Source: Dehalococcoidia bacterium (lineage in GTDB: Bacteria > Chloroflexota > Dehalococcoidia > Lucifugimonadales > UBA3495). Taken from it: a stretch of DNA of 64,000 nucleotides. Both the position numbers and the translations under genes were made by a program. The stretch lies in NCBI GenBank assembly GCA_965203855.1, contig CBDBDN010000005.1:65804-129803 (forward strand). Reading direction: 5' to 3'. Below the pieces are notes generated by a model that was not told the DNA's origin, ran no database searches, and saw nothing but the letters and a program-made list of their open reading frames with translations. Numbering within the stretch: the stretch's first letter is position 1; each line of letters starts with the position of its first letter. This document shows positions 4,030-20,090 of the stretch, piece after piece.

Positions 4030-4875
4030 ATGCAAGCCATTGATATGCACGTCCATGTGCCCCGGGAACCGGGCCTGCCCGAAATTGAAATTGAGGCCGA
4101 ACTGCTGCGCTACTTCCGCGCGCCGCCGCCCCCGTCGGACCCGGCGGAAATGGCCGCCCGTTTCCGCAGCCTTGACCTGTTCGGCGTCATCTTTTCCGTG
4201 GACACTACCACCAACACCGGCGAAAAGCCCGACAGCAACGATTGGGTCGCCAGCATCGTCAACGCCCATCCGCAGCAGTTTATGGGCTTCGCTTCCGTTG
4301 ACCCCTGGATGGGCAAGGCCGCCTGCTACGAACTGGAACGCGCTGTCAAGGAACTCGGCCTCAAAGGACTGAAACTGCATCCCATACATCAGGCTTTTAT
4401 GCCCAACGATACCCACTTTTATCCCCTGTACGAAGTTGCCGACGGGCTGGGCATTCCGGTTCTGTTTCATTCCGGTTTCGCCGGCGCCGGTTCCGGTACG
4501 CCCGGCGGCAGCGGCCTCAAGCTCAAGTACAGCCAGCCCATCCCCTGCTTTGACGATGTGGCCGCCGATTTTCCCAACCTCACCATCATTATGGCCCATC
4601 CCGCCTGGCCTTGGATTGACCAGCAGATTGCCGTCGCCCTGCACAAATCCAATGTGTACCTGGACTTGTCTGGCTGGATGCCCCGGTTCATCCCGGAGCC
4701 GCTGCTGCGGGAAACCAACACCCGCTTGCAAGACAAGGTAATGTTCGGCTCCGACTACCCGTTCATCCAGCCCGATGCCTGGCTGCATGACTTTCAGAAC
4801 CTGCAAATGCGCGACCATGTCATCCCCAAAGTGCTGATTGAAAACGCCCGCCGCGCCCTCAACATCCCGGCCTGA
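4030..4875 (+). CDS. amidohydrolase-2 family metal-dependent hydrolase (TIM barrel)
   Basis: N-terminal IDMHVHV and C-terminal FGSDYPF motifs, 281 aa. Confidence 0.85.
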   Translation: MQAIDMHVHVPREPGLPEIEIEAELLRYFRAPPPPSDPAEMAARFRSLDLFGVIFSVDTTTNTGEKPDSNDWVASIVNAHPQQFMGFASVDPWMGKAACYELERAVKELGLKGLKLHPIHQAFMPNDTHFYPLYEVADGLGIPVLFHSGFAGAGSGTPGGSGLKLKYSQPIPCFDDVAADFPNLTIIMAHPAWPWIDQQIAVALHKSNVYLDLSGWMPRFIPEPLLRETNTRLQDKVMFGSDYPFIQPDAWLHDFQNLQMRDHVIPKVLIENARRALNIPA

Positions 4876-5063
4876 CCGCCCCATTTCCCGCCTTACCAGG
4901 TGATAGGATAAATGGAACGACAGCGCGGCTTTGGCGCGGTTCTTTCAATGACCGCAGCATATAGCGTCGGCTGCCGGACGGCGGTTATAGTAGCGGCGCA
5001 AAAGCAGCCGTCCCATGCCGCCCGGCGCCGGCTTGCTGTACGCCTGATTTCCGATTCGCACCC

Positions 5064-8344: not shown

Positions 8345-8968
8345 ATGCTTGGCGATTCCCTCCCTGGCACTACCCGCTCCCTGGCGCAGCTTACCGAGGA
8401 ACTGCGCCGGCTGCCCGGCGTCGGCCCCAAAAGCGCCCAGCGCATCGCCTACTATATCGCCCAGATGCCGGCCGAGGAAGCCCGATCCCTCTCCGACGCC
8501 ATTATCGCCGTGAAAGACCTGATCCTGTTCTGCGACGAATGCCGCAACCTCACCGATGCCTCGCCTTGTGATATTTGCGCCAACCCGCAGCGCAACCGGG
8601 ACCAGATTTGCGTAGTTGAGGAATCCCGCGACCTCGTGGCGCTGGAACGCACCCGCGCCTATCGCGGCCTTTACCATGTGCTGCACGGCGTCCTCTCTCC
8701 CCTCAACGGCGTCGGGCCGGAGGACATCCATCTCCCCCAGCTCCTGGCCCGCCTTGACGGCGCCGCCGACCCCTTGCAGGAACTAATTATCGCTACCAAC
8801 CCCACTTTAGAGGGCGATGCTACCGCCGACTTTATCCAGCGCCGCCTGTCCGGCTCCGGCATCACCGTTACCCGCTTGGCCCGGGGATTGCCCGTTGGCG
8901 GGTCCCTGGAATTCGCCGACGAAACTACCCTGACCCGCGCCTTGGCCGGCCGCAGCCCAACGGAATAG
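8345..8968 (+). CDS. recR: recombination protein RecR
   Basis: LPGVGPKSAQRIAYY helix-hairpin-helix, C4 zinc finger CDEC...CDIC, and a Toprim region (VVEE..D..ALE). Confidence 0.95.
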   Translation: MLGDSLPGTTRSLAQLTEELRRLPGVGPKSAQRIAYYIAQMPAEEARSLSDAIIAVKDLILFCDECRNLTDASPCDICANPQRNRDQICVVEESRDLVALERTRAYRGLYHVLHGVLSPLNGVGPEDIHLPQLLARLDGAADPLQELIIATNPTLEGDATADFIQRRLSGSGITVTRLARGLPVGGSLEFADETTLTRALAGRSPTE

Positions 8969-8975
8969 CCCGGCG

Positions 8976-9767
8976 ATGGCGCAGCCGCGCACCTACCGCG
9001 CCACGGCGCTTACCCTACGCAAGCGCATCGCCGGCGAATCCGACCTCATCGCTACCCTGCTTACCCGTGAGCATGGCAAGGTTGAGGCGGTAGCGCGCGG
9101 CGCGCGCCGCTTTACCAGCCGGCTGATGGGGCATTTTGAGCCCCTTACCCTGCTGCGCGTGTCTCTGGCGCGCGGCCGTTCTCTGGACACGGTTAGCGAA
9201 GCCGAAGTCATTTCCGCTTTCAATGCCCTCAAAAGCGACTACCGAACTACCGCCCGCGCCCTGTATGTCGCCGAACTGCTGGACGGATTCTCCGCACTCT
9301 CCGCCGTCAATCCCGAACTCTTTGACCTGGCTACCCGAACTTTGGCCGCTATTTCCGCAACGCCGGACGCCGACCTGCCGCTGCGCTGTTTCGACCTGCA
9401 ACTGCTCAACCTCTCCGGCTTTCTCCCCGAACTTTACTGCTGCGTTGACTGCGGCGATGAGCTGGCGCCGGAACAGCATCGCTACGCCGCCGGCGCCGGC
9501 GGTACGCTTTGCCCCGACTGCATCCCCGACGATACCCCGATTCGCCCGCTTTCGCTCCCGGCCCTCAAAGTGCTGCGCCTGCTGCACCGCACCGCCCGGC
9601 CCGACCTGCTGCCCGATATTCACATCCCGCCCGACATCCATAGCGAAGTGAGCGCCGCCCTTTCCGCCAGCCTCCGTTACTGGATGGACGGCCCGGTGCG
9701 TTCCCAAACTTTCCTGGACGGCATCGCCGCTGCTACGGCAGCGCATCCCGGTACTGCTATAAAGTAA
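8976..9767 (+). CDS. recO: DNA repair protein RecO
   Basis: N-terminal OB-fold pattern (ALTLRKRIAGESDLIATLLTREHGKVEAVARGARR), a C-terminal CxxC...CxxC, and position next to recR. Confidence 0.85.
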   Translation: MAQPRTYRATALTLRKRIAGESDLIATLLTREHGKVEAVARGARRFTSRLMGHFEPLTLLRVSLARGRSLDTVSEAEVISAFNALKSDYRTTARALYVAELLDGFSALSAVNPELFDLATRTLAAISATPDADLPLRCFDLQLLNLSGFLPELYCCVDCGDELAPEQHRYAAGAGGTLCPDCIPDDTPIRPLSLPALKVLRLLHRTARPDLLPDIHIPPDIHSEVSAALSASLRYWMDGPVRSQTFLDGIAAATAAHPGTAIK

Positions 9768-9817
9768 TGCCGTGTATAAAACGATGCCGTGTATAAAGCG
9801 ATGCCGTGAAATCCGCC
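9767..9817 (+). repeat. 17-bp tandem direct repeat x2.5 after recO
   Basis: atgccgtgtataaaacg / atgccgtgtataaagcg / atgccgtgaaatccgcc. A further gatgccgg lies 12 nt before the accC start. Confidence 0.7.
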
Positions 9818-9991
9818 GGAACTTGCCCCGTCGTCTATTGAACCGGCAGCGCCAAAAGGATTACAAAGAGCGTCATTAACGCGGCGCGGCCGCCATCCTC
9901 AACCGGGCACACCGTACCGCCCCCGTCCCGACCCGCCCGCCGGACGGACGGAATACGCCAAGAGTGGTAAGACGATGCCGGAGAGCGCAAG

Positions 9992-11578
9992 ATGTTCAGC
10001 AAAGTACTGGTCGCTAACCGCGGCGAAATCGCCGTCCGCATCATTCGCACTTGTCAGCGGTTGGGCGTGCCCACCGTGGCCGTCTATTCCGAAGCCGACG
10101 CCGGCGCCGCCCACACCCGGCAAGCCGACGCAGCAGTCTGCATCGGCCCCGCCGCCGCCGCCGATTCTTACCTCAACATTGACGCCGTGCTGTCCGCCTG
10201 CCGCGCCACCGGCGCCGCCGCCATCCATCCCGGCTACGGATTCCTGTCGGAAAACAGCGAACTTTCCCGCCGCTGCAAATCCGAAGGCATCATCTTTATC
10301 GGCCCCGGCGAGGAAGTCCTCAACCAGATGGCCGACAAACTCTCGGCGCGTCGGGTCGCCCGCAAATCCGGCCTCCCCGTTATGCCCGGCACCGAGGAGC
10401 CGGTACAGGACGACGAAGCCATCGCCAAAGCCTGGGAACTGGGCTTTCCGATGATGGTCAAAGCCACTGCCGGCGGCGGCGGCATCGGCATCCACGTCGT
10501 GCATAGCATGGCGGAACTGGAACCCGTCATTGAGCGGACGCGCAAAACCGCCGCCGCCGCTTTCGCCGACTCCAGCCTGTTCTACGAGCGCTACCTGCAA
10601 GGCGCTTCCCATATTGAAGTGCAAATTGTCGCCGACCACTTCGGCAATGTGCTGCACCTTTACGAGCGCGACTGCTCCATCCAGCGCCGCAATCAAAAGC
10701 TGATTGAGGAAACGCCGGCTACCGCCAAGCTCAACCCCGAAGTGCGCGGCCAAATCCGCCGCCTGTCCCGCCAGCTGGGTCGCGAAGTCGGCTACACCAA
10801 TGCCGGCACCGTCGAGTTTCTGGTTGCCCCCGACGGCCATTTCTACTTCCTGGAAATGAACCCCCGCTTGCAAGTGGAACACGGCGTTACCGAACTGCTT
10901 ACCGGGCAGGACATTGTAGCCTTGCAATTACAAGCCGCCGCCGGCATCCCTTTTGAACTGCGCCAGCGCAACATCCGCGCCCACGGCCACGCCATCGAAG
11001 CCCGCGTCTATCCCGAAAACCCCGATACTTGCCTGCCCACCGTCGGCACGGTAACCGATCTGCGGCTGCCGGAGGGCCGACATATCCGCGTAGATACCGC
11101 CCTCTATGTCGGATACGAAGTGCTGCTGCATTACGAGCCGCTGCTCGCCAAAGTGATGGTCAGCGGCCCCGACCGTCCCGCCGCCATCGCCCGGCTGGAC
11201 GCCGCCCTGGCCGATTTCCACCTGGACGGCGTAACCACCAACATCCCCCTGCTGCGGGATGTGCTGGCCAGCCCGGAGTTCGCTTCCGGCAATTACCACA
11301 CCGGCACGCTGCCGCAGATTATAGAACGCCGGCGGCAGTCGCACGGCCTCGCCCAAAATCAAAATGGCCGGAATGCGCCGGGCAAAACGCCGCAAAACGG
11401 GTATAATGCTGGCTTGGCGCAAAACCCGCGAGCATTGGCCGCCGCCATCGGCGCCGCCGTAGTGGCGGCCCAAGCCGGCCAGTCAGCCAGCGTTACGCCG
11501 GAACCCGCCGGCTCCCGCTGGCGCACTACGGGACGCCGGGAACTTTTCCGCTCGCGGCTCGGCAGCGCAACCTGGTAA
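9992..11578 (+). CDS. accC: biotin carboxylase (acetyl/acyl-CoA carboxylase subunit)
   Basis: MFSKVLVANRGEIAVRIIRT, ATP-grasp blocks (MVKATAGGGGIG; EMNPRLQVEH). There is a low-complexity C-terminal extension of about 75 aa. Confidence 0.9.
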   Translation: MFSKVLVANRGEIAVRIIRTCQRLGVPTVAVYSEADAGAAHTRQADAAVCIGPAAAADSYLNIDAVLSACRATGAAAIHPGYGFLSENSELSRRCKSEGIIFIGPGEEVLNQMADKLSARRVARKSGLPVMPGTEEPVQDDEAIAKAWELGFPMMVKATAGGGGIGIHVVHSMAELEPVIERTRKTAAAAFADSSLFYERYLQGASHIEVQIVADHFGNVLHLYERDCSIQRRNQKLIEETPATAKLNPEVRGQIRRLSRQLGREVGYTNAGTVEFLVAPDGHFYFLEMNPRLQVEHGVTELLTGQDIVALQLQAAAGIPFELRQRNIRAHGHAIEARVYPENPDTCLPTVGTVTDLRLPEGRHIRVDTALYVGYEVLLHYEPLLAKVMVSGPDRPAAIARLDAALADFHLDGVTTNIPLLRDVLASPEFASGNYHTGTLPQIIERRRQSHGLAQNQNGRNAPGKTPQNGYNAGLAQNPRALAAAIGAAVVAAQAGQSASVTPEPAGSRWRTTGRRELFRSRLGSATW

Positions 11579-12057: not shown

Positions 12058-12507
12058 ATGTCGGTAAAAGCCGGACGCCGTTCCATAGAACTGGTCGGCG
12101 AAGTGCGGGGAATGACGCTGAATGATGACGGCATCGGCGGCGCATTTCAGCTCCGCCTGGACGACGGCGCAACCGTCGCCGTTGATTTTGGCGCCGAGCA
12201 TGAGCCCGGCATCGTAATGGCGTTGTTGCAGCGTACTTATCAACGCCTCAAAATTACCGGATTGGGCGATTTCGGCGCAGACGGCAAACTGCGCCGCGTC
12301 TGCCGCCTGGACACCAAAACGCCGGCGCGAATTCCATCGCCGGCGGAAGCGCAGCCGGCAACCCCGGGCAGCGCGCGGGAGTTTATAGAGGAGTGGATTG
12401 CATTCGGCAAGACCATCCCGGAGGAGGAATGGGCCAAGTTCCCCACCGATTTCGCCGAAAATATGGACCACTATATGTACGGATTGCCCAAGCGAGGTGA
12501 GGAATGA
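12058..12507 (+). CDS. putative antitoxin partner of VapC (unclassified, 149 aa)
   Basis: 4-bp overlap with the downstream PIN gene and an AGGAG RBS. The C-terminal tail (FAENMDHYMYGLPKR) resembles antitoxin tails I recall from PIN modules. The N-terminal 90 aa were not recognised. Confidence 0.5.
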   Translation: MSVKAGRRSIELVGEVRGMTLNDDGIGGAFQLRLDDGATVAVDFGAEHEPGIVMALLQRTYQRLKITGLGDFGADGKLRRVCRLDTKTPARIPSPAEAQPATPGSAREFIEEWIAFGKTIPEEEWAKFPTDFAENMDHYMYGLPKRGEE

Positions 12508-12911
12508 CGCCGGTTTTCGCCGATACTTCCTACTGGTTTGCCGCTCTGGATCCGAGCGACCAATGGCACGAAGCGGCGATGCGCGCCGCCGCCGCTATCG
12601 GCGACCGCGAAATCGTTACTACCGAAATGGTCCTCGCCGAACTCCTGAACGCCGTCAGCCGGCTGGGGCCGACATTCCGGGCCGACGCCGCCGCGCGCAT
12701 CCGGAGAATGCGGCGCATACCGAACATTACCATCATTGAGCAAACCGCCGATCAGTTTGAGGCAGCGCTGACCTATTACGAAGCGCGGCTGGACAAACGC
12801 TGGGGCATTACCGACTGCGCCAGCTTCCTGACCATGCGCGCCGCCGGCATCACCCACGCCCTTACCGCCGACCGCGATTTTACGCAGGCCGGATTCTCCC
12901 TCTTAATGTGA
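12504..12911 (+). CDS. vapC: PIN-domain ribonuclease, VapC-like toxin
   Basis: Acidic PIN residues in the expected spacing across 135 aa: FADTSYW, VTTEMVLAELLN, ITDCASF and LTADRDF. Confidence 0.85.
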   Translation: MTPVFADTSYWFAALDPSDQWHEAAMRAAAAIGDREIVTTEMVLAELLNAVSRLGPTFRADAAARIRRMRRIPNITIIEQTADQFEAALTYYEARLDKRWGITDCASFLTMRAAGITHALTADRDFTQAGFSLLM

Positions 12912-12942: not shown

Positions 12943-16068
<3,126 letters not shown>

Positions 16069-16088
16069 CCCCAATGCTGAATTTCCGA

Positions 16089-17231
16089 TCAATCATCATT
16101 CTCTGAAATCACCAAATCACGGGGATTGTGCAACGTCCAACGCTGTCCTTCACGCCGCAAGTCCCCTTCTAACGAAACCACCAACCTCAGATTATGAGCG
16201 TCCGTAATCCGTCCGTAATCCGCTGGTGAGAAATCGGCCCGTATCGACCGCATTGCGCCCTCAACGACCGCCTTGAGGGTTACACGCCCCTGATGTTCCG
16301 ACTGTTCGCGCGCCAAGGATGTTACATAACCCTCGATCCTCTCGTCTGGATGCTCTTGCCGGTCTTTCAATGTGCGAGACGCTTCCCGCAAAATAGGCAA
16401 ATCGGATGCTACGAACTGCGCTTGCGCCCGGTTTTCTTTCGCGTTGCGGATTGCAGCCCAACTGACCGATATGTCAAGCGCTTTGCCGTTCTCGACGCCA
16501 AGCAACGCGGTGATGGCATCGCAGAAATTTGCGCTGATACCTTGTGCAATTTTCCGCTCGAAAGCTTGGATGTCTTCCCCCTGGTTGACTGCCACTATTG
16601 CTTCGCGCGTAGAGTGCAAGCTGGAAGCAAGTTTGCGTGTTACTTGCCGCTCGAACGGTTCCTCAGGAGCGGTATCAAGTAAGGCGCCCTGCCCGGCGGA
16701 CAGAACGGGCGGCACCGGCGAAAGCAAATTAGCAACGAAGCTGCCTTGTTCGGTCTGACCCAACCTAACGCTACGCATATAGTCGGATGCCTGCTGATTC
16801 CGCCCCGCCCGGAAAAATCGTTGCGGACGCACTGTAGAGCAAGCCGCCGCTAGCAGCAAATTGTGCGCCTCGCGGAACAGCGTTACGCCGGTATCTATTG
16901 ATACCGACCCGTCCTCTGCGGCTTCTGGCAAACGGACGCGCAGCAAGTCATAGCCCGTTAACCTGATGTCATGCAGGATGGCGCGGCCGTCCCTATTTTC
17001 TACCCGCGTCAAGGTTTTGATTATTTCGTTCAGTCGGATCGCATAATCCGCAAAATTCTCCGCCGCCGGCACCAGCACTTCATCGTTGCGATCCGCCGAA
17101 GTATAAACGCTCCCCATATCACCATACGGTCGCACCCCCTCCCAGCCGTGAGCGCCAAGATAGGCGTGCACCAACCGAGACGGAACCCTGGCTAGGGAAT
17201 CTAATCCGACCGTTTGCCACTGCGTTGTCAT
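16089..17231 (-). CDS. hypothetical protein, 380 aa, second gene of the DUF4365 cassette
   Basis: Long clean ORF in a lower-GC segment, starting 2 nt after the upstream gene stop. I could see no P-loop, HNH, DEAD, TIR or other recognisable motif. Confidence 0.7.
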   Translation of the reverse strand: MTTQWQTVGLDSLARVPSRLVHAYLGAHGWEGVRPYGDMGSVYTSADRNDEVLVPAAENFADYAIRLNEIIKTLTRVENRDGRAILHDIRLTGYDLLRVRLPEAAEDGSVSIDTGVTLFREAHNLLLAAACSTVRPQRFFRAGRNQQASDYMRSVRLGQTEQGSFVANLLSPVPPVLSAGQGALLDTAPEEPFERQVTRKLASSLHSTREAIVAVNQGEDIQAFERKIAQGISANFCDAITALLGVENGKALDISVSWAAIRNAKENRAQAQFVASDLPILREASRTLKDRQEHPDERIEGYVTSLAREQSEHQGRVTLKAVVEGAMRSIRADFSPADYGRITDAHNLRLVVSLEGDLRREGQRWTLHNPRDLVISENDD

Positions 17232-17233
17232 TT

Positions 17234-17737
17234 CTACTCAATCGGAATTCCCTGGACTGCCATATCCATCAATTGCTGCAATCTGCCCGGGTTCAGAATC
17301 TGCGATTCAGGCAGGATTACAACCTTGGAGCCACTGTCAATCTCCGGGTATCCACGCAACGACAGCCACCATACCCTGCGTCGCAACGCCAGTTGTTCCG
17401 CGTCGCATTTGCCCCAATCATCCGCGTCAGTCGGCAATTCCAAGACCGCTAGGATAATCGGACAAAATCGCGGCGATTCCCGAAGGTGTTCGTAATTAGG
17501 ATTGCGTACCTGGTAATGGAGGCCGTCTTTCAGTAAGTTCGGCGCTGATGTTGCTTTGAGCTGAACGTCTATCTGTCCAGTTGGCGGCCGTCCGGTTCGC
17601 ACTACTGCATCGACGCTTGTTACATCTGGCTCCGGCCCTCTTTCACAGGTATAGCCCGCCAAAGCGGCCAGTGCGGATAGCCACGCAAACGACAGATTAG
17701 CCTTGCGTTCATCGTCATTCAAGAATCCGCCGGTCAT
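17234..17737 (-). CDS. DUF4365-type (PD-(D/E)xK nuclease-fold-like) protein
   Basis: The pattern LSFAWLSALAALAGY...DVTSVDAVV...GQIDVQLKATS...YEHL...PIILAVLELP...VWWLSLRG matches my memory of the DUF4365 family layout. Confidence 0.65.
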   Translation of the reverse strand: MTGGFLNDDERKANLSFAWLSALAALAGYTCERGPEPDVTSVDAVVRTGRPPTGQIDVQLKATSAPNLLKDGLHYQVRNPNYEHLRESPRFCPIILAVLELPTDADDWGKCDAEQLALRRRVWWLSLRGYPEIDSGSKVVILPESQILNPGRLQQLMDMAVQGIPIE

Positions 17738-17776
17738 TGCGTTGCCCCGTCATCGGCCAAAGCCTTCGGTGCCGGT

Positions 17777-17804
17777 AGTATAACGATAATTGTCGCATTT
17801 GCAA
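17777..17804 (-). promoter_or_regulatory. sigma70-like promoter of the DUF4365 cassette
   Basis: On the minus strand: TTGCAA (17799-17804), a 16-nt spacer, then TATACT (17777-17782), about 40 nt upstream of ATG 17737. Confidence 0.55.
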
Positions 17805-17820
17805 CCGCCGCCCCGCAGCC

Positions 17821-18303
17821 CTACTCCCCCCGGCAATCCTCAAACTTCAGTATCCGCCCCACTTCCGCTATATTCCCGTACAGCGTTATCGTATCCCCGA
17901 TGCTGAACGCCAATACATCGTCCAGCTCCTCAAACCGGCACTCCACATAGTCATCCTTCTTCATCGCCCGCCGCGCCAGATGAAACTGCACTTTCGTCCC
18001 GTCTATCTTGCTGACGATGCCCGTGAACCCATACACCCCCTTTTCGTCCATCATCTTGTCAAACCGCACCGGATTCCGTTCCCTTTCATCCTGAAACCAG
18101 GCGTACAGCAGCGATGCCGGCTGCGCGGTCGGCGTCGGCAGCGGCGCCGGCGTGTAAATCGCCGTTTCGCCCCCACCGCATCCCAACCCCACCCCGGCGA
18201 GACCCAACGCCAGCAGCAGCCAGGCCGCCGCCGCAATCGCCATCACGCCCGGCCGCCGCCGGCCGCCGATGGCAGAGGATTGATTACGCTGATACCCCAA
18301 CAT
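17821..18303 (-). CDS. lipoprotein with OB-fold (tRNA_anti-like) domain
   Basis: Signal peptide with lipobox LGLGC. The C-terminal part has the layout F..K...K.V..F.G.V..I....V.F.........V.C.F........GD.ITL.G......L.FEDC. Confidence 0.5.
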   Translation of the reverse strand: MLGYQRNQSSAIGGRRRPGVMAIAAAAWLLLALGLAGVGLGCGGGETAIYTPAPLPTPTAQPASLLYAWFQDERERNPVRFDKMMDEKGVYGFTGIVSKIDGTKVQFHLARRAMKKDDYVECRFEELDDVLAFSIGDTITLYGNIAEVGRILKFEDCRGE

Positions 18304-18410
18304 AGCTAATGCCTTGACGCACTCCGATTATACACCGGCTCAACTTCCCGCCATTCCGGTTTGATTTCCCATCACTCCAATTTGACTTCCCGCCATTCCG
18401 ATTTTTCCCC

Positions 18411-18436
18411 CGTCATTCCGGCGCAAGCCGGAATCC
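18411..18436 (+). repeat. REP-like palindromic element copy
   Basis: cgtcattccggc-gcaa-gccggaatcc. Two left half-sites (cccgccattccg) lie at 18348-18360 and 18389-18401. Confidence 0.85.
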
Positions 18437-18506
18437 GGTTGCGTTTTCTAGCCTCCCACTTGCTCCAAAACGACGACCTTACGGATAATACCCCCGCAAA
18501 CGAACC

Positions 18507-20090
18507 CTACCGTGCCGCCGGCCGACCCGGCCGCGTCGCCGACAGCATCAGCAGCGATACCGCCGCCAGGTTGATGCCGAATGCCGTAAAAACCCCCTGG
18601 TAGCTGCCCACCGCATCCACTACTATGCCCGCCGCCGTCGGCCCGCAAGCCTGCCCCGCTACCTGCGCCGACAGCCCCCACGCCCGTATCGCCCCCAGAT
18701 GCGTCCGCCCAAAGTAATCCGCCCAAGTGAGACGGCTGATGATGTGCAGTCCCCCTACGCCAAACCCCAAAATGAATGCGCCCAGTATGCCCACGCTTAT
18801 GTCGCCGGCGTATGCCGTTACCGCCGCGCCCCCCGCTACTACCAGCCCCGCAACCGGCATCACGAACCGCGCCGCCGCCCGCTGTGCAATCAGCGACCAC
18901 AAAATGCTGGCCGGCACCTGCGAAATCGCAAACGTGCTGGCCGTCCACACCGCTACCGAATCCGGTATCCCCTGATCCTCAAAATGCGGCACCTGATGCA
19001 GCGATACCCCCGCCTGCACGATGAACCCCGCAAAGGCGAACAGCATCATCAGCCAGAACGCCCGCGTCCGCATCGCCTGCCGCAGCGTAAAGTTGATTTC
19101 GTCCGCCGCGCTCCGCGGACGCCGCCCGGATGCTGCTGTTGCCCCTGTCGCTGCTGACGCTGACGATGCTGACGCCGCCGCCGTCCCCCCGGACGCCCCG
19201 GCGGACGCTCCCGATGCTGCTGTTGCCGACGCTCTGGACGATTGCGATGGCGCCCTCGCCGCTCCCCCGTCCGGTTCCAGCCCCAAATCCTCCGGACGCC
19301 GCCCCATCAGCGCTATCGTCGGTGCTACCCCCACCGCCAGCGTCCAGATACCCAAAGCGTACCACGCCGTCTGCCAGCTCCACGCTCCGATGATGGCCTG
19401 CGCGATCAGCGGCATCACCGCCAGCCCGGAACCTTGCAAAATGTGATTCACCGCCAGCGCAAAAGGCCGCCGCCGGATGAACCAGTTGCTTACCGCCGTC
19501 GCCGTTCCCAGCTCCAGCGGGCTGGCGAATACCGCCCGCCCCGGCACATACACCAGATAGAACAGCGTAATGTGGTTGACCGCCCCCAGCCCCACGGCGC
19601 ACAGCCCGGCGATGCCCGTTGACACTCCTACCACCAGGCCCGACCCGTAGCGGTCTATCAGCGGCCCCACCAGCGGCGACAGCACTACGGCGCAGACCCC
19701 GCCCAGGCTGACCGCTACCGATACTGCCGTCCGCGACCACCCCAGCTCCGTTTCCATCGGCACCACGAATACCGTCAGCACCGCCACCGCCATCAGCGGG
19801 CGCGACGAATACGAAGCCAGCCCCGACAGGCCGAGGATTATCCATCCGTAATAGAACGGAACGGTCCGCGCCGTCCGCGCCTGCAACGCCCGCATCAGCG
19901 GCCACCGGCCCGGCGGCGGCAATTCGTCAACCCGGATACGAACAACCCGGATACGAACCGCCCGGATGCGAGCAGCCCGGATAGGAACGGCAGGACAGTC
20001 AAAACGGCAATGCGGCTCCGCGAAATTCTGCGGCGGCGGGACCGGTTCAACCCGCAGTTCCCGCCGATTATAGCAGGTAATGTTCGCCAT
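18507..20090 (-). CDS. MFS transporter
   Basis: Multi-TM profile, with an Ala/Ser-rich low-complexity central loop. The first 65 or so codons run through a 15-bp tandem repeat and are probably not coding. The likely start is ATG at complement 19895 (MRALQARTARTVPFYYGWIILG). Confidence 0.8.
   Translation of the reverse strand: MANITCYNRRELRVEPVPPPQNFAEPHCRFDCPAVPIRAARIRAVRIRVVRIRVDELPPPGRWPLMRALQARTARTVPFYYGWIILGLSGLASYSSRPLMAVAVLTVFVVPMETELGWSRTAVSVAVSLGGVCAVVLSPLVGPLIDRYGSGLVVGVSTGIAGLCAVGLGAVNHITLFYLVYVPGRAVFASPLELGTATAVSNWFIRRRPFALAVNHILQGSGLAVMPLIAQAIIGAWSWQTAWYALGIWTLAVGVAPTIALMGRRPEDLGLEPDGGAARAPSQSSRASATAASGASAGASGGTAAASASSASAATGATAASGRRPRSAADEINFTLRQAMRTRAFWLMMLFAFAGFIVQAGVSLHQVPHFEDQGIPDSVAVWTASTFAISQVPASILWSLIAQRAAARFVMPVAGLVVAGGAAVTAYAGDISVGILGAFILGFGVGGLHIISRLTWADYFGRTHLGAIRAWGLSAQVAGQACGPTAAGIVVDAVGSYQGVFTAFGINLAAVSLLMLSATRPGRPAAR
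19931..19990. repeat. 15-bp tandem direct repeat x4 upstream of the MFS gene
   Basis: cccggatacgaacaa / cccggatacgaaccg / cccggatgcgagcag / cccggataggaacgg. Confidence 0.8.

Follow-up and report, generated by a model that had tools for sequence, protein, structure and literature searches.

Genes A and B form a cassette on the minus strand of a 64,000-nt stretch of DNA from a Dehalococcoidia bacterium (GenBank assembly GCA_965203855.1, contig CBDBDN010000005.1, positions 65,804 to 129,803 of the forward strand; the whole stretch is called the window below). As called from open reading frames (ORFs), gene A (17234-17737) encodes a stand-alone predicted nuclease of 167 aa with a DUF4365 domain (DREN-type, PD-(D/E)xK-like), while gene B (16089-17231) encodes a partner of 380 aa; they correspond to the A and B components of PDC-M02, a candidate anti-phage or anti-plasmid system. 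The two are a real two-gene operon, A preceding B on the same strand at a spacing of 2 nt (TAG-aa-ATG). Gene B is convergent with uvrA (12943-16068), the stops of B (16089) and uvrA (16068) being 20 nt apart. These positions and gaps had been given in an initial annotation of the locus, made from the sequence alone, and are correct, as are the peptide motifs it quoted from both proteins. A scan of the intervening nucleotides (16069-16088) shows no terminator-like hairpin and, given the short gap, transcription of uvrA or B may extend antisense into the other gene.

The cassette has a GC content of 0.554, as compared with 0.625 for the window (sd 0.024, size-matched windows), and this is the minimum among all size-matched windows of the 64 kb. 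Third codon positions (GC3) show the same shift, with 0.57 in A and 0.60 in B versus 0.82 in uvrA, 0.76 in the MFS gene on the far side of the cassette and 0.80 in the gene for NadE. The drop in GC that had first drawn attention to the locus is hence real, with single 60-nt lines going down to 41.7%, although it is milder than implied at the time. The initial annotation also credited the cassette with a promoter of its own. The element concerned, TTGCAA-N16-TATACT, is indeed present on the minus strand (17777-17804, read from 17804 to 17777), 33-40 nt upstream of the A start codon, and its hexamers amount to a 9/12 match; since the 2.8-kb region holds three such matches as against 1.5 ± 1.3 in shuffled sequences, its position makes a promoter plausible, but the match is not above chance.

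Membership in PDC-M02 and linkage of the two genes

Protein A matches the PADLOC family PDC-M02A (PDLC04278, E = 1.7e-38, residues 6-162 of 167), all 25 listed matches being PDC-M02A models, and protein B matches PDC-M02B (PDLC04298, E = 2.8e-125, residues 11-378 of 380). B has matches to 38 PADLOC families, and the 25 of them that are listed are all PDC-M02B; no match other than PDC-M02 occurs among the matches listed for the pair. The layout is likewise that of the system, with adjacent genes on one strand and A before B. On every criterion computable from sequence, the cassette is a member of PDC-M02, with no structural difference from it.

PDC-M02 is one of 145 phage-defence candidates that were added to PADLOC as predictions, in this case by 'guilt-by-embedding' (Payne et al. 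2024, bioRxiv 10.1101/2024.01.29.577857). The supplementary table of the same study lists the cassette as CAS_00021 (FAM_01850>>FAM_00842) with the entry 'Assign as candidate PDC-M02' and a number, 894, that we read as the instance count; the catalogue gives neither a domain description of B nor a mechanism (bioRxiv 10.1101/2024.01.29.577857). Because it is listed there, the cassette is not undescribed and does correspond to a named system, contrary to the initial annotation, although the name stands for a prediction. Nor is B the orphan that it was taken for, since an exhaustive profile search retrieves a family of 5,404 cluster representatives at E ≤ 1e-3 (3,709 at E ≤ 1e-10), nearly all of them 370-390 aa long; 'PDC-M02 candidate' can replace 'orphan' in the annotation. 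The instinct as to type was reasonable, as both genes of what had been seen as a co-transcribed nuclease and partner of the defence-candidate kind match PDC-M02 A and B; overall, the earlier observation is partly confirmed and its interpretation partly supported. New here are a map of the domains of B, the identification of a conserved D...QxK core in A, a quantification of the synteny, translational coupling and co-divergence of A and B, and a description of the phage, plasmid and defence-island contexts of the pair and of its conserved-site, mosaic-allele behaviour beside uvrA.

Genomic context was taken from the loci of B homologues. A scan of one genome per species returned 363 relatives of B, from which 80 loci were kept, spanning Chloroflexota, Acidobacteriota, Alpha-, Beta- and Gammaproteobacteria, Gemmatimonadota, Nitrospirota, Myxococcota, Verrucomicrobiota, Latescibacterota and Binatia. 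In 70 of these, tblastn places a homologue of A immediately upstream of B and on its strand; together with two loci in which tblastn missed a divergent DUF4365-like ORF upstream of B (L033 and L068), this makes about 72 of 80 (~90%), and the two genes are accordingly syntenic elsewhere, as a defence-type pair had been expected to be. Of 66 loci, 49 have a 4-nt overlap between the stop of A and the start of B. Across 2,211 pairs, the pairwise identities of A correlate with those of B (r = 0.87), which is the pattern expected of a co-inherited unit, though the value is partly inflated by shared phylogeny, and the two proteins are equally conserved, with a mean pairwise identity of 0.44 each. That A and B are a functional pair is supported by these data.

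A few loci depart from this arrangement. Gene B is truncated or degraded in L031 and L042, and in L069 a PIN gene lies upstream of it. In L008, a gene for a patatin-like phospholipase (PF01734, E = 8e-27; 8734-9780, plus strand) replaces A upstream of an intact B (9953-11092), which may be an effector swap, seen in a single case. One 752-aa protein (P0217) has B fused C-terminally to TPR repeats. In another (P0200, 478 aa), the C-terminal half of DUF4365 runs in frame into B, either as a real fusion or through a frameshift or assembly artefact. A further candidate for an A-B fusion (P0044, 544 aa, PF14280) was rejected: its A part turns arginine-rich after about 95 residues in a frameshift-like manner, and it is therefore not counted as Rosetta-stone evidence. 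A second DUF4365 gene (4597-5049, plus strand) is present in the Chloroflexota locus L068, some 5 kb upstream of the A-B pair there.

The predicted nuclease and its partner

Protein A matches the Pfam family DUF4365 (PF14280) with E = 4.8e-12 and 46.6 bits, against a gathering cut-off of 24.3, over profile positions 3-138 of 139 and residues 15-159 of the 167, which bears out the family assignment made at first from the layout of the protein; it also falls into phrog_27905, a PHROG family without annotated function. Nuclease-type residues are conserved, as the initial annotation had anticipated: D38 and D43 are kept in 65 of 67 homologues of A, Q59 and K61 in all 67, and all four are invariant in a 22-sequence alignment of A (codons within 17555-17626, minus strand). 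A profile search of the PDB with A retrieved only the core of EcoRV, at a weak E of 0.15 yet exactly in register, D43 falling on the D of 'PD' and Q59-x-K61 on D-I-K, and returned no chain of SPARDA, the Argonaute system considered below. The EcoRV residues involved are D74, D90 and K92, and the alignment served only to place the motif. In TmuRE, the DUF4365 protein of a SPARDA system, mutation of the putative active-site residues (Q62A/K64A) inactivates the protein (PMC10810196). Judged by its sequence, A has a conserved D38/D43...Q59-x-K61 motif of nuclease type, with the same QxK variant as TmuRE, and belongs to DUF4365 both by the profile threshold and by the combination of acidic residues with a (D/E/Q)xK motif.

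Protein B has no match among Pfam or NCBIfam families and falls into phrog_27927, again a PHROG family without annotated function. Its AlphaFold2 model (32-sequence alignment; pLDDT 85.9, pTM 0.77) has three parts: an N-terminal alpha/beta domain (about residues 10-100; residues 1-100 are encoded at 16932-17231), a helical/beta middle domain (residues 112-290, 16362-16898) and a beta-rich C-terminal domain (residues 293-376, 16104-16355), all on the minus strand. This agrees with the earlier description of B as a protein lacking any motif that could be placed, with a beta-rich C-terminus. Sequence searches of the PDB with B, both single and profile-based, gave only noise, such as a herpesvirus capsid protein at E = 0.12 and designed armadillo repeats through repeated weak matches, which we regard as spurious. 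Foldseek found no full-length relative of the model in the PDB, and among predicted viral structures (BFVD) only one, that of an uncharacterised protein from Leptospira phage LE1, matches over the full length (E = 1.6e-23, TM 0.65), phage single-stranded DNA-binding proteins (SSBs) being among the weaker matches there.

The C-terminal domain, which in the predicted structure corresponds to a five-stranded OB barrel, matches OB-folds including the OB domain of PolC (3f2b, E = 4.5e-3), SSBs, bacterial and mitochondrial ones among them (2hql, 6cqo), RPA and the anticodon-binding domain of AspRS, with probabilities of about 1.0 and target-normalised TM scores of 0.45-0.6 over 85-105 columns; in Foldseek there are dozens of OB-fold matches, with probabilities of 0.9-1.0 and target-normalised TM scores of 0.45-0.63. 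The chain ends in a short acidic tail (ENDD, residues 377-380, 16092-16103, minus strand), and in 66 homologues of B the last 10 residues have a D/E fraction of 0.40 as compared with 0.149 overall, with at least four D/E in 45 of them. Bacterial SSBs likewise have an acidic C-terminal tail, with the conserved tip DDDIPF. One of the 66 homologues ends in LDDAPDDLPF, recalling that tip. The likeness to SSB thus lies in about 85 C-terminal residues of the model that superpose on the OB-folds of SSB, RPA and PolC; the OB-fold is only a quarter of B, and B has no sequence similarity to the SSB family.

Modelled separately (pLDDT 85.2), residues 1-292 of B have no PDB match with E ≤ 0.001; Wzz/FepE and other matches were disregarded, as their root-mean-square deviation (rmsd) exceeds 13 Å. 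The first ~60 residues, predicted to fold as alpha-beta-beta-beta-alpha in a HicA/dsRBD-like manner, superpose on the HicA toxin 6g26_E (TM 0.68, rmsd 2.8 Å over 59 aa, probability 0.97), at a weak E of 0.5. A catalytic histidine is the defining feature of HicA-like mRNA interferases. Residues 1-100 of B hold no invariant or nearly invariant His in 32 homologues, the invariant positions being Y24, W30, P55, D62, Y63, E78, R80, D95 and R98; the HicA-like module is therefore read as possibly RNA- or protein-binding rather than catalytic. The middle domain has highly conserved motifs (AAACS..RPQ, VRLGQTE.GSF and GVSANLC) and no detectable structural relative in the PDB.

Mobile elements, defence islands and the uvrA-adjacent site

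The pair is carried by phages and plasmids. Genes gp38 and gp37 of Leptospira phage LE1 are a PDC-M02 A/B pair, and so are genes 1 and 2, near the prophage end, of two Mycobacterium abscessus prophages; in one of these (prophi102-2) the pair lies at 398-2160, where the prophage record begins, a few genes from those annotated as 'WXG motif protein'. Homologues of B are present on 26 plasmids, and on a conjugative Gluconobacter plasmid a gene annotated as 'DUF4365 domain-containing protein' adjoins the B gene. Among about 31 sampled chromosomal loci, three have the cassette between known defence genes: DrmMI - A - B - Dsr2 in L004, DrmMI - A - B - C5-methyltransferase - UvrD-like helicase in L011, and in L013 IetS upstream and PD-Lambda-4_A downstream. 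The defence-island placement that the initial annotation had put forward for checking is thus found, with genes of DISARM, Dsr2, Iet and PD-Lambda-4 as flanks, but only in these three, most loci having housekeeping neighbours. Such sparse placement agrees with Payne et al., who note a weaker association with islands for PDCs than for systems discovered through enrichment (bioRxiv 10.1101/2024.01.29.577857).

In two metagenomic chromosomes, L081 and L085, the order MFS - A - B followed by convergent uvrA recurs at the position seen in the window, with NadE, BCCP, recO and recR genes around the cassette. Protein identities to the window (L081 and L085, respectively) are 86% and 85% for UvrA, 80% and 82% for NadE, 76.5% in both cases for BCCP, and 72% and 69% for the MFS protein; those of A are 49% and 71%, and those of B 61% and 56%. 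The nucleotide alignments are mosaic: similarity to L081 extends from uvrA up to 16991, taking in the 3' two-thirds of B, and similarity to L085 covers 16709-17737, with all of A and the 5' portion of B. The GC content of the cassette is low in both relatives too. A search of 15800-18700 turned up no convincing repeats flanking the cassette, direct or inverted, and no convincing att-like sites. Horizontal acquisition, as first proposed for this compact cassette, fits its low GC, but the same MFS/uvrA site is occupied in the two relatives, whose uvrA is 85-86% identical, by diverged mosaic alleles, and the cassette is therefore not a fresh insertion. The site has long been occupied, and divergence or recombination proceeds far more rapidly in the cassette than around it, as conflict genes typically show, though this does not prove such a role. 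Across 87 loci, a full-length uvrA stands beside B only in this lineage (L081, L085 and L086); two further uvrA matches are short, weak and of ABC type, several kb from B.

Between A and the MFS gene lies a stretch specific to the window (17738-18527, minus strand), alignable by blastn with neither L081 nor L085. Within it are the promoter-like site and an ORF of 160 aa (17821-18303, minus strand) that both relatives lack. The N-terminus of the ORF product resembles a signal peptide with a lipobox (LGLAGVGLGCGG). The ORF has no tblastn match in any fetched locus, no PADLOC family and no significant Pfam family, and the stretch, ORF included, is probably not part of the A-B system. Two 20-nt direct repeats that are 95% identical (18343-18362 and 18385-18404, 42 nt from start to start) lie between this ORF and the MFS gene.

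On the other side of uvrA, immediately upstream of it (12058-12911, plus strand), is a toxin-antitoxin-like pair, in which a 149-aa ORF overlaps that of a 135-aa PIN-domain protein (PF01850, E = 1.3e-12). In L081 the same place is taken by a diverged copy (39% and 47% identity), and L085 has none; with this pair and the A-B cassette, variable accessory cassettes border uvrA on either side. UvrA itself, of 1041 aa here, contains an insertion of low complexity with many N, G, S and A residues, followed by RRRRR (~14301-14535, plus strand), which appears to be a hypervariable internal linker, as it is the only part of uvrA without DNA similarity to L081 and L085.

A sensor-nuclease reading and its alternatives

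We regard the chances as evenly balanced that the cassette is a defence-type sensor-nuclease pair, with A as its predicted nuclease effector. Features of the kind seen in conflict systems are its occurrence in LE1, in the M. abscessus prophages and on the 26 plasmids, the three defence-flanked loci, the lowest GC of the window and the fast mosaic divergence. For a sensor-like B speak the confident model with its predicted OB-fold, the conserved acidic tail, and the TPR-fused and patatin-adjacent variants.

Hachiman and Shedu follow a comparable general logic, in which a PD-(D/E)xK nuclease effector is restrained until a nucleic-acid cue arrives; their nuclease families, DUF1837 and DUF4263, are unlike that of A, and B has no helicase or ATPase motifs. 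With SPARDA, a short prokaryotic Argonaute paired with a DREN/DUF4365-APAZ protein, the cassette shares the DUF4365/DREN nuclease family, the QxK-type motif and a two-gene layout of sensor and nuclease. On its own, the SPARDA DREN (DUF4365) domain is monomeric and inactive; filaments of target-bound Argonaute force it into D2 tetramers, which act as a collateral DNase/RNase (PMC12205087). Such SPARDA domains are the only DUF4365 nucleases characterised so far, all of them non-specific and collateral (PMC12205087, PMC10810196). A differs in being a stand-alone protein whose 167 aa leave no room for a fused APAZ, and B in having no MID/PIWI; Foldseek matches in the PDB, whether to the full-length model of B or to residues 1-292, include neither Argonaute nor APAZ structures, and the PADLOC matches listed for B include nothing related to pAgo. 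With neither APAZ nor an Argonaute partner, the cassette may work like SPARDA, which does not make it a SPARDA, and nothing in B points to guide-RNA-based recognition. Divona, reported as an anti-phage protein from an integron cassette, also has an N-terminal DUF4365 (bioRxiv 10.1101/2024.07.02.601686); it is described as a single protein, combining DUF4365 with an Mrr-type nuclease and a crr6 domain, without a partner like B. A full-text search of the literature mentioning DUF4365, in which the SPARDA and short-pAgo studies and Divona figure, gave no description of the A-B two-gene pair.

On the sensor-nuclease reading, A would be the effector, kept inactive, as a monomer or in a complex with B, and B the sensor or regulator and the scaffold. 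The OB-fold of B would recognise a nucleic-acid cue from the invader, be it single-stranded DNA, replication intermediates or RNA; the acidic tail might hold B in an auto-inhibited state or bind a partner. Once bound to its ligand, B would bring copies of A together into an active oligomer, and this would degrade nucleic acid of the invader, the host or both, giving direct or abortive-infection immunity. Such a role for B seems the most economical model, given that A is essentially a bare DREN domain while B is larger, equally conserved and equipped with predicted nucleic-acid-binding modules. We hold the individual steps with less confidence than the overall sensor-nuclease statement.

Several points weigh against this reading. 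Most of the roughly 31 sampled chromosomal loci, and the window itself, have housekeeping neighbours around the cassette. The analogy to SPARDA extends to the shared nuclease domain only, B being unrelated to Argonaute or APAZ. The E-values of the OB-fold matches are modest (best 4.5e-3) and nucleic-acid binding by B is a prediction, while the HicA-like match, at E = 0.5, is a lead only. The patatin and TPR variants are single cases each. The searchable literature contains no experiment on PDC-M02 that we could find, the name itself being absent from full-text search, and other PDC/HEC candidates have a mixed record: four of eight were active in E. coli (PMC12881386) and none of two in a native Pseudomonas host (PMC12409345).

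An addiction or selfish module resembling toxin-antitoxin (TA) systems, with A as nuclease toxin and B as a large antitoxin or regulator, would persist because its loss is harmful rather than for defence. A tight operon of two overlapping genes would suit it well, and so would carriage on plasmids (once beside a RelE/ParE pair), solo placement amid housekeeping genes, a patchy distribution, and the TA-like PIN pair across uvrA in the window and L081. B would nevertheless be an unusual antitoxin: type II antitoxins are small and have a DNA-binding or a disordered neutralising domain, whereas B has 380 aa in three conserved, well-folded domains (pLDDT 86) and no match to a helix-turn-helix (HTH), ribbon-helix-helix (RHH) or AbrB domain, it is as conserved as A (0.44 both), and it occurs with other partners and fusions. 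As the cassette also sits within DISARM and other defence islands, we find an addiction module unlikely, although it overlaps with the sensor-nuclease reading because many TA modules are defence systems. Were B instead to read a feature of foreign DNA and direct cutting by A to it, the host surviving, the cassette would be a modification-dependent (type IV-like) or DNA-directed restriction system. DUF4365 belongs to the restriction-endonuclease fold and aligns, weakly, with the EcoRV core (E = 0.15), methyltransferases (DrmMI, the C5-methyltransferase) are among the neighbours, and one locus adjoins phage DNA-hypermodification genes (5-hmdU kinase, Nmad3); yet Foldseek found no SRA, EVE, YTH, ASCH or winged-helix reader fold in B, OB-folds mostly bind single-stranded nucleic acid, and the DUF4365 nucleases characterised to date act collaterally, without specificity, all of which makes restriction distinctly improbable.

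Finally, the neighbourhood in this lineage could suggest a housekeeping accessory of DNA repair or recombination, a nuclease with an SSB-like OB-fold protein acting alongside UvrA, RecO and RecR: the cassette converges on uvrA at a distance of 20 nt, does the same in L081 and L085, and has recO and recR a few kb away, and the OB-fold and acidic tail of B are reminiscent of SSB. The confinement of full-length uvrA adjacency to this lineage among the 87 loci weakens this explanation, and neighbours elsewhere are unrelated. With a patchy distribution, carriage by phages and plasmids, a GC3 about 0.2 below that of neighbouring genes, a mosaic divergence far faster than that of uvrA or NadE, and no NCBIfam or Pfam repair family match, a repair accessory appears highly improbable to us.

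A bolder version of the sensor-nuclease reading, which we put forward tentatively and would not bet on, makes PDC-M02 an Argonaute-independent counterpart of SPARDA. Here B would be a new kind of invader sensor, in which an SSB-like OB-fold and an acidic tail are joined to a domain with no detectable structural relative, and which polymerises on phage single-stranded DNA or replication intermediates (or on a phage SSB-interacting protein) and forces A into active tetramers. The scaffold of B could be reused with other effectors, as the patatin-adjacent and TPR-fused variants hint, and the fixed site beside uvrA, with its mosaic alleles, would be a hotspot of defence driven by recombination in this lineage.

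Should PDC-M02 turn out to protect against phages, the system would count as a widespread form of two-gene immunity, the B family having some 5,400 cluster representatives across many bacterial phyla, phages and plasmids. Its effector would be the same collateral nuclease domain that is exploited by SPARDA-based tools for nucleic-acid detection. Its sensor would be one without a characterised relative, and the trigger of B could reveal a new mode of infection detection.

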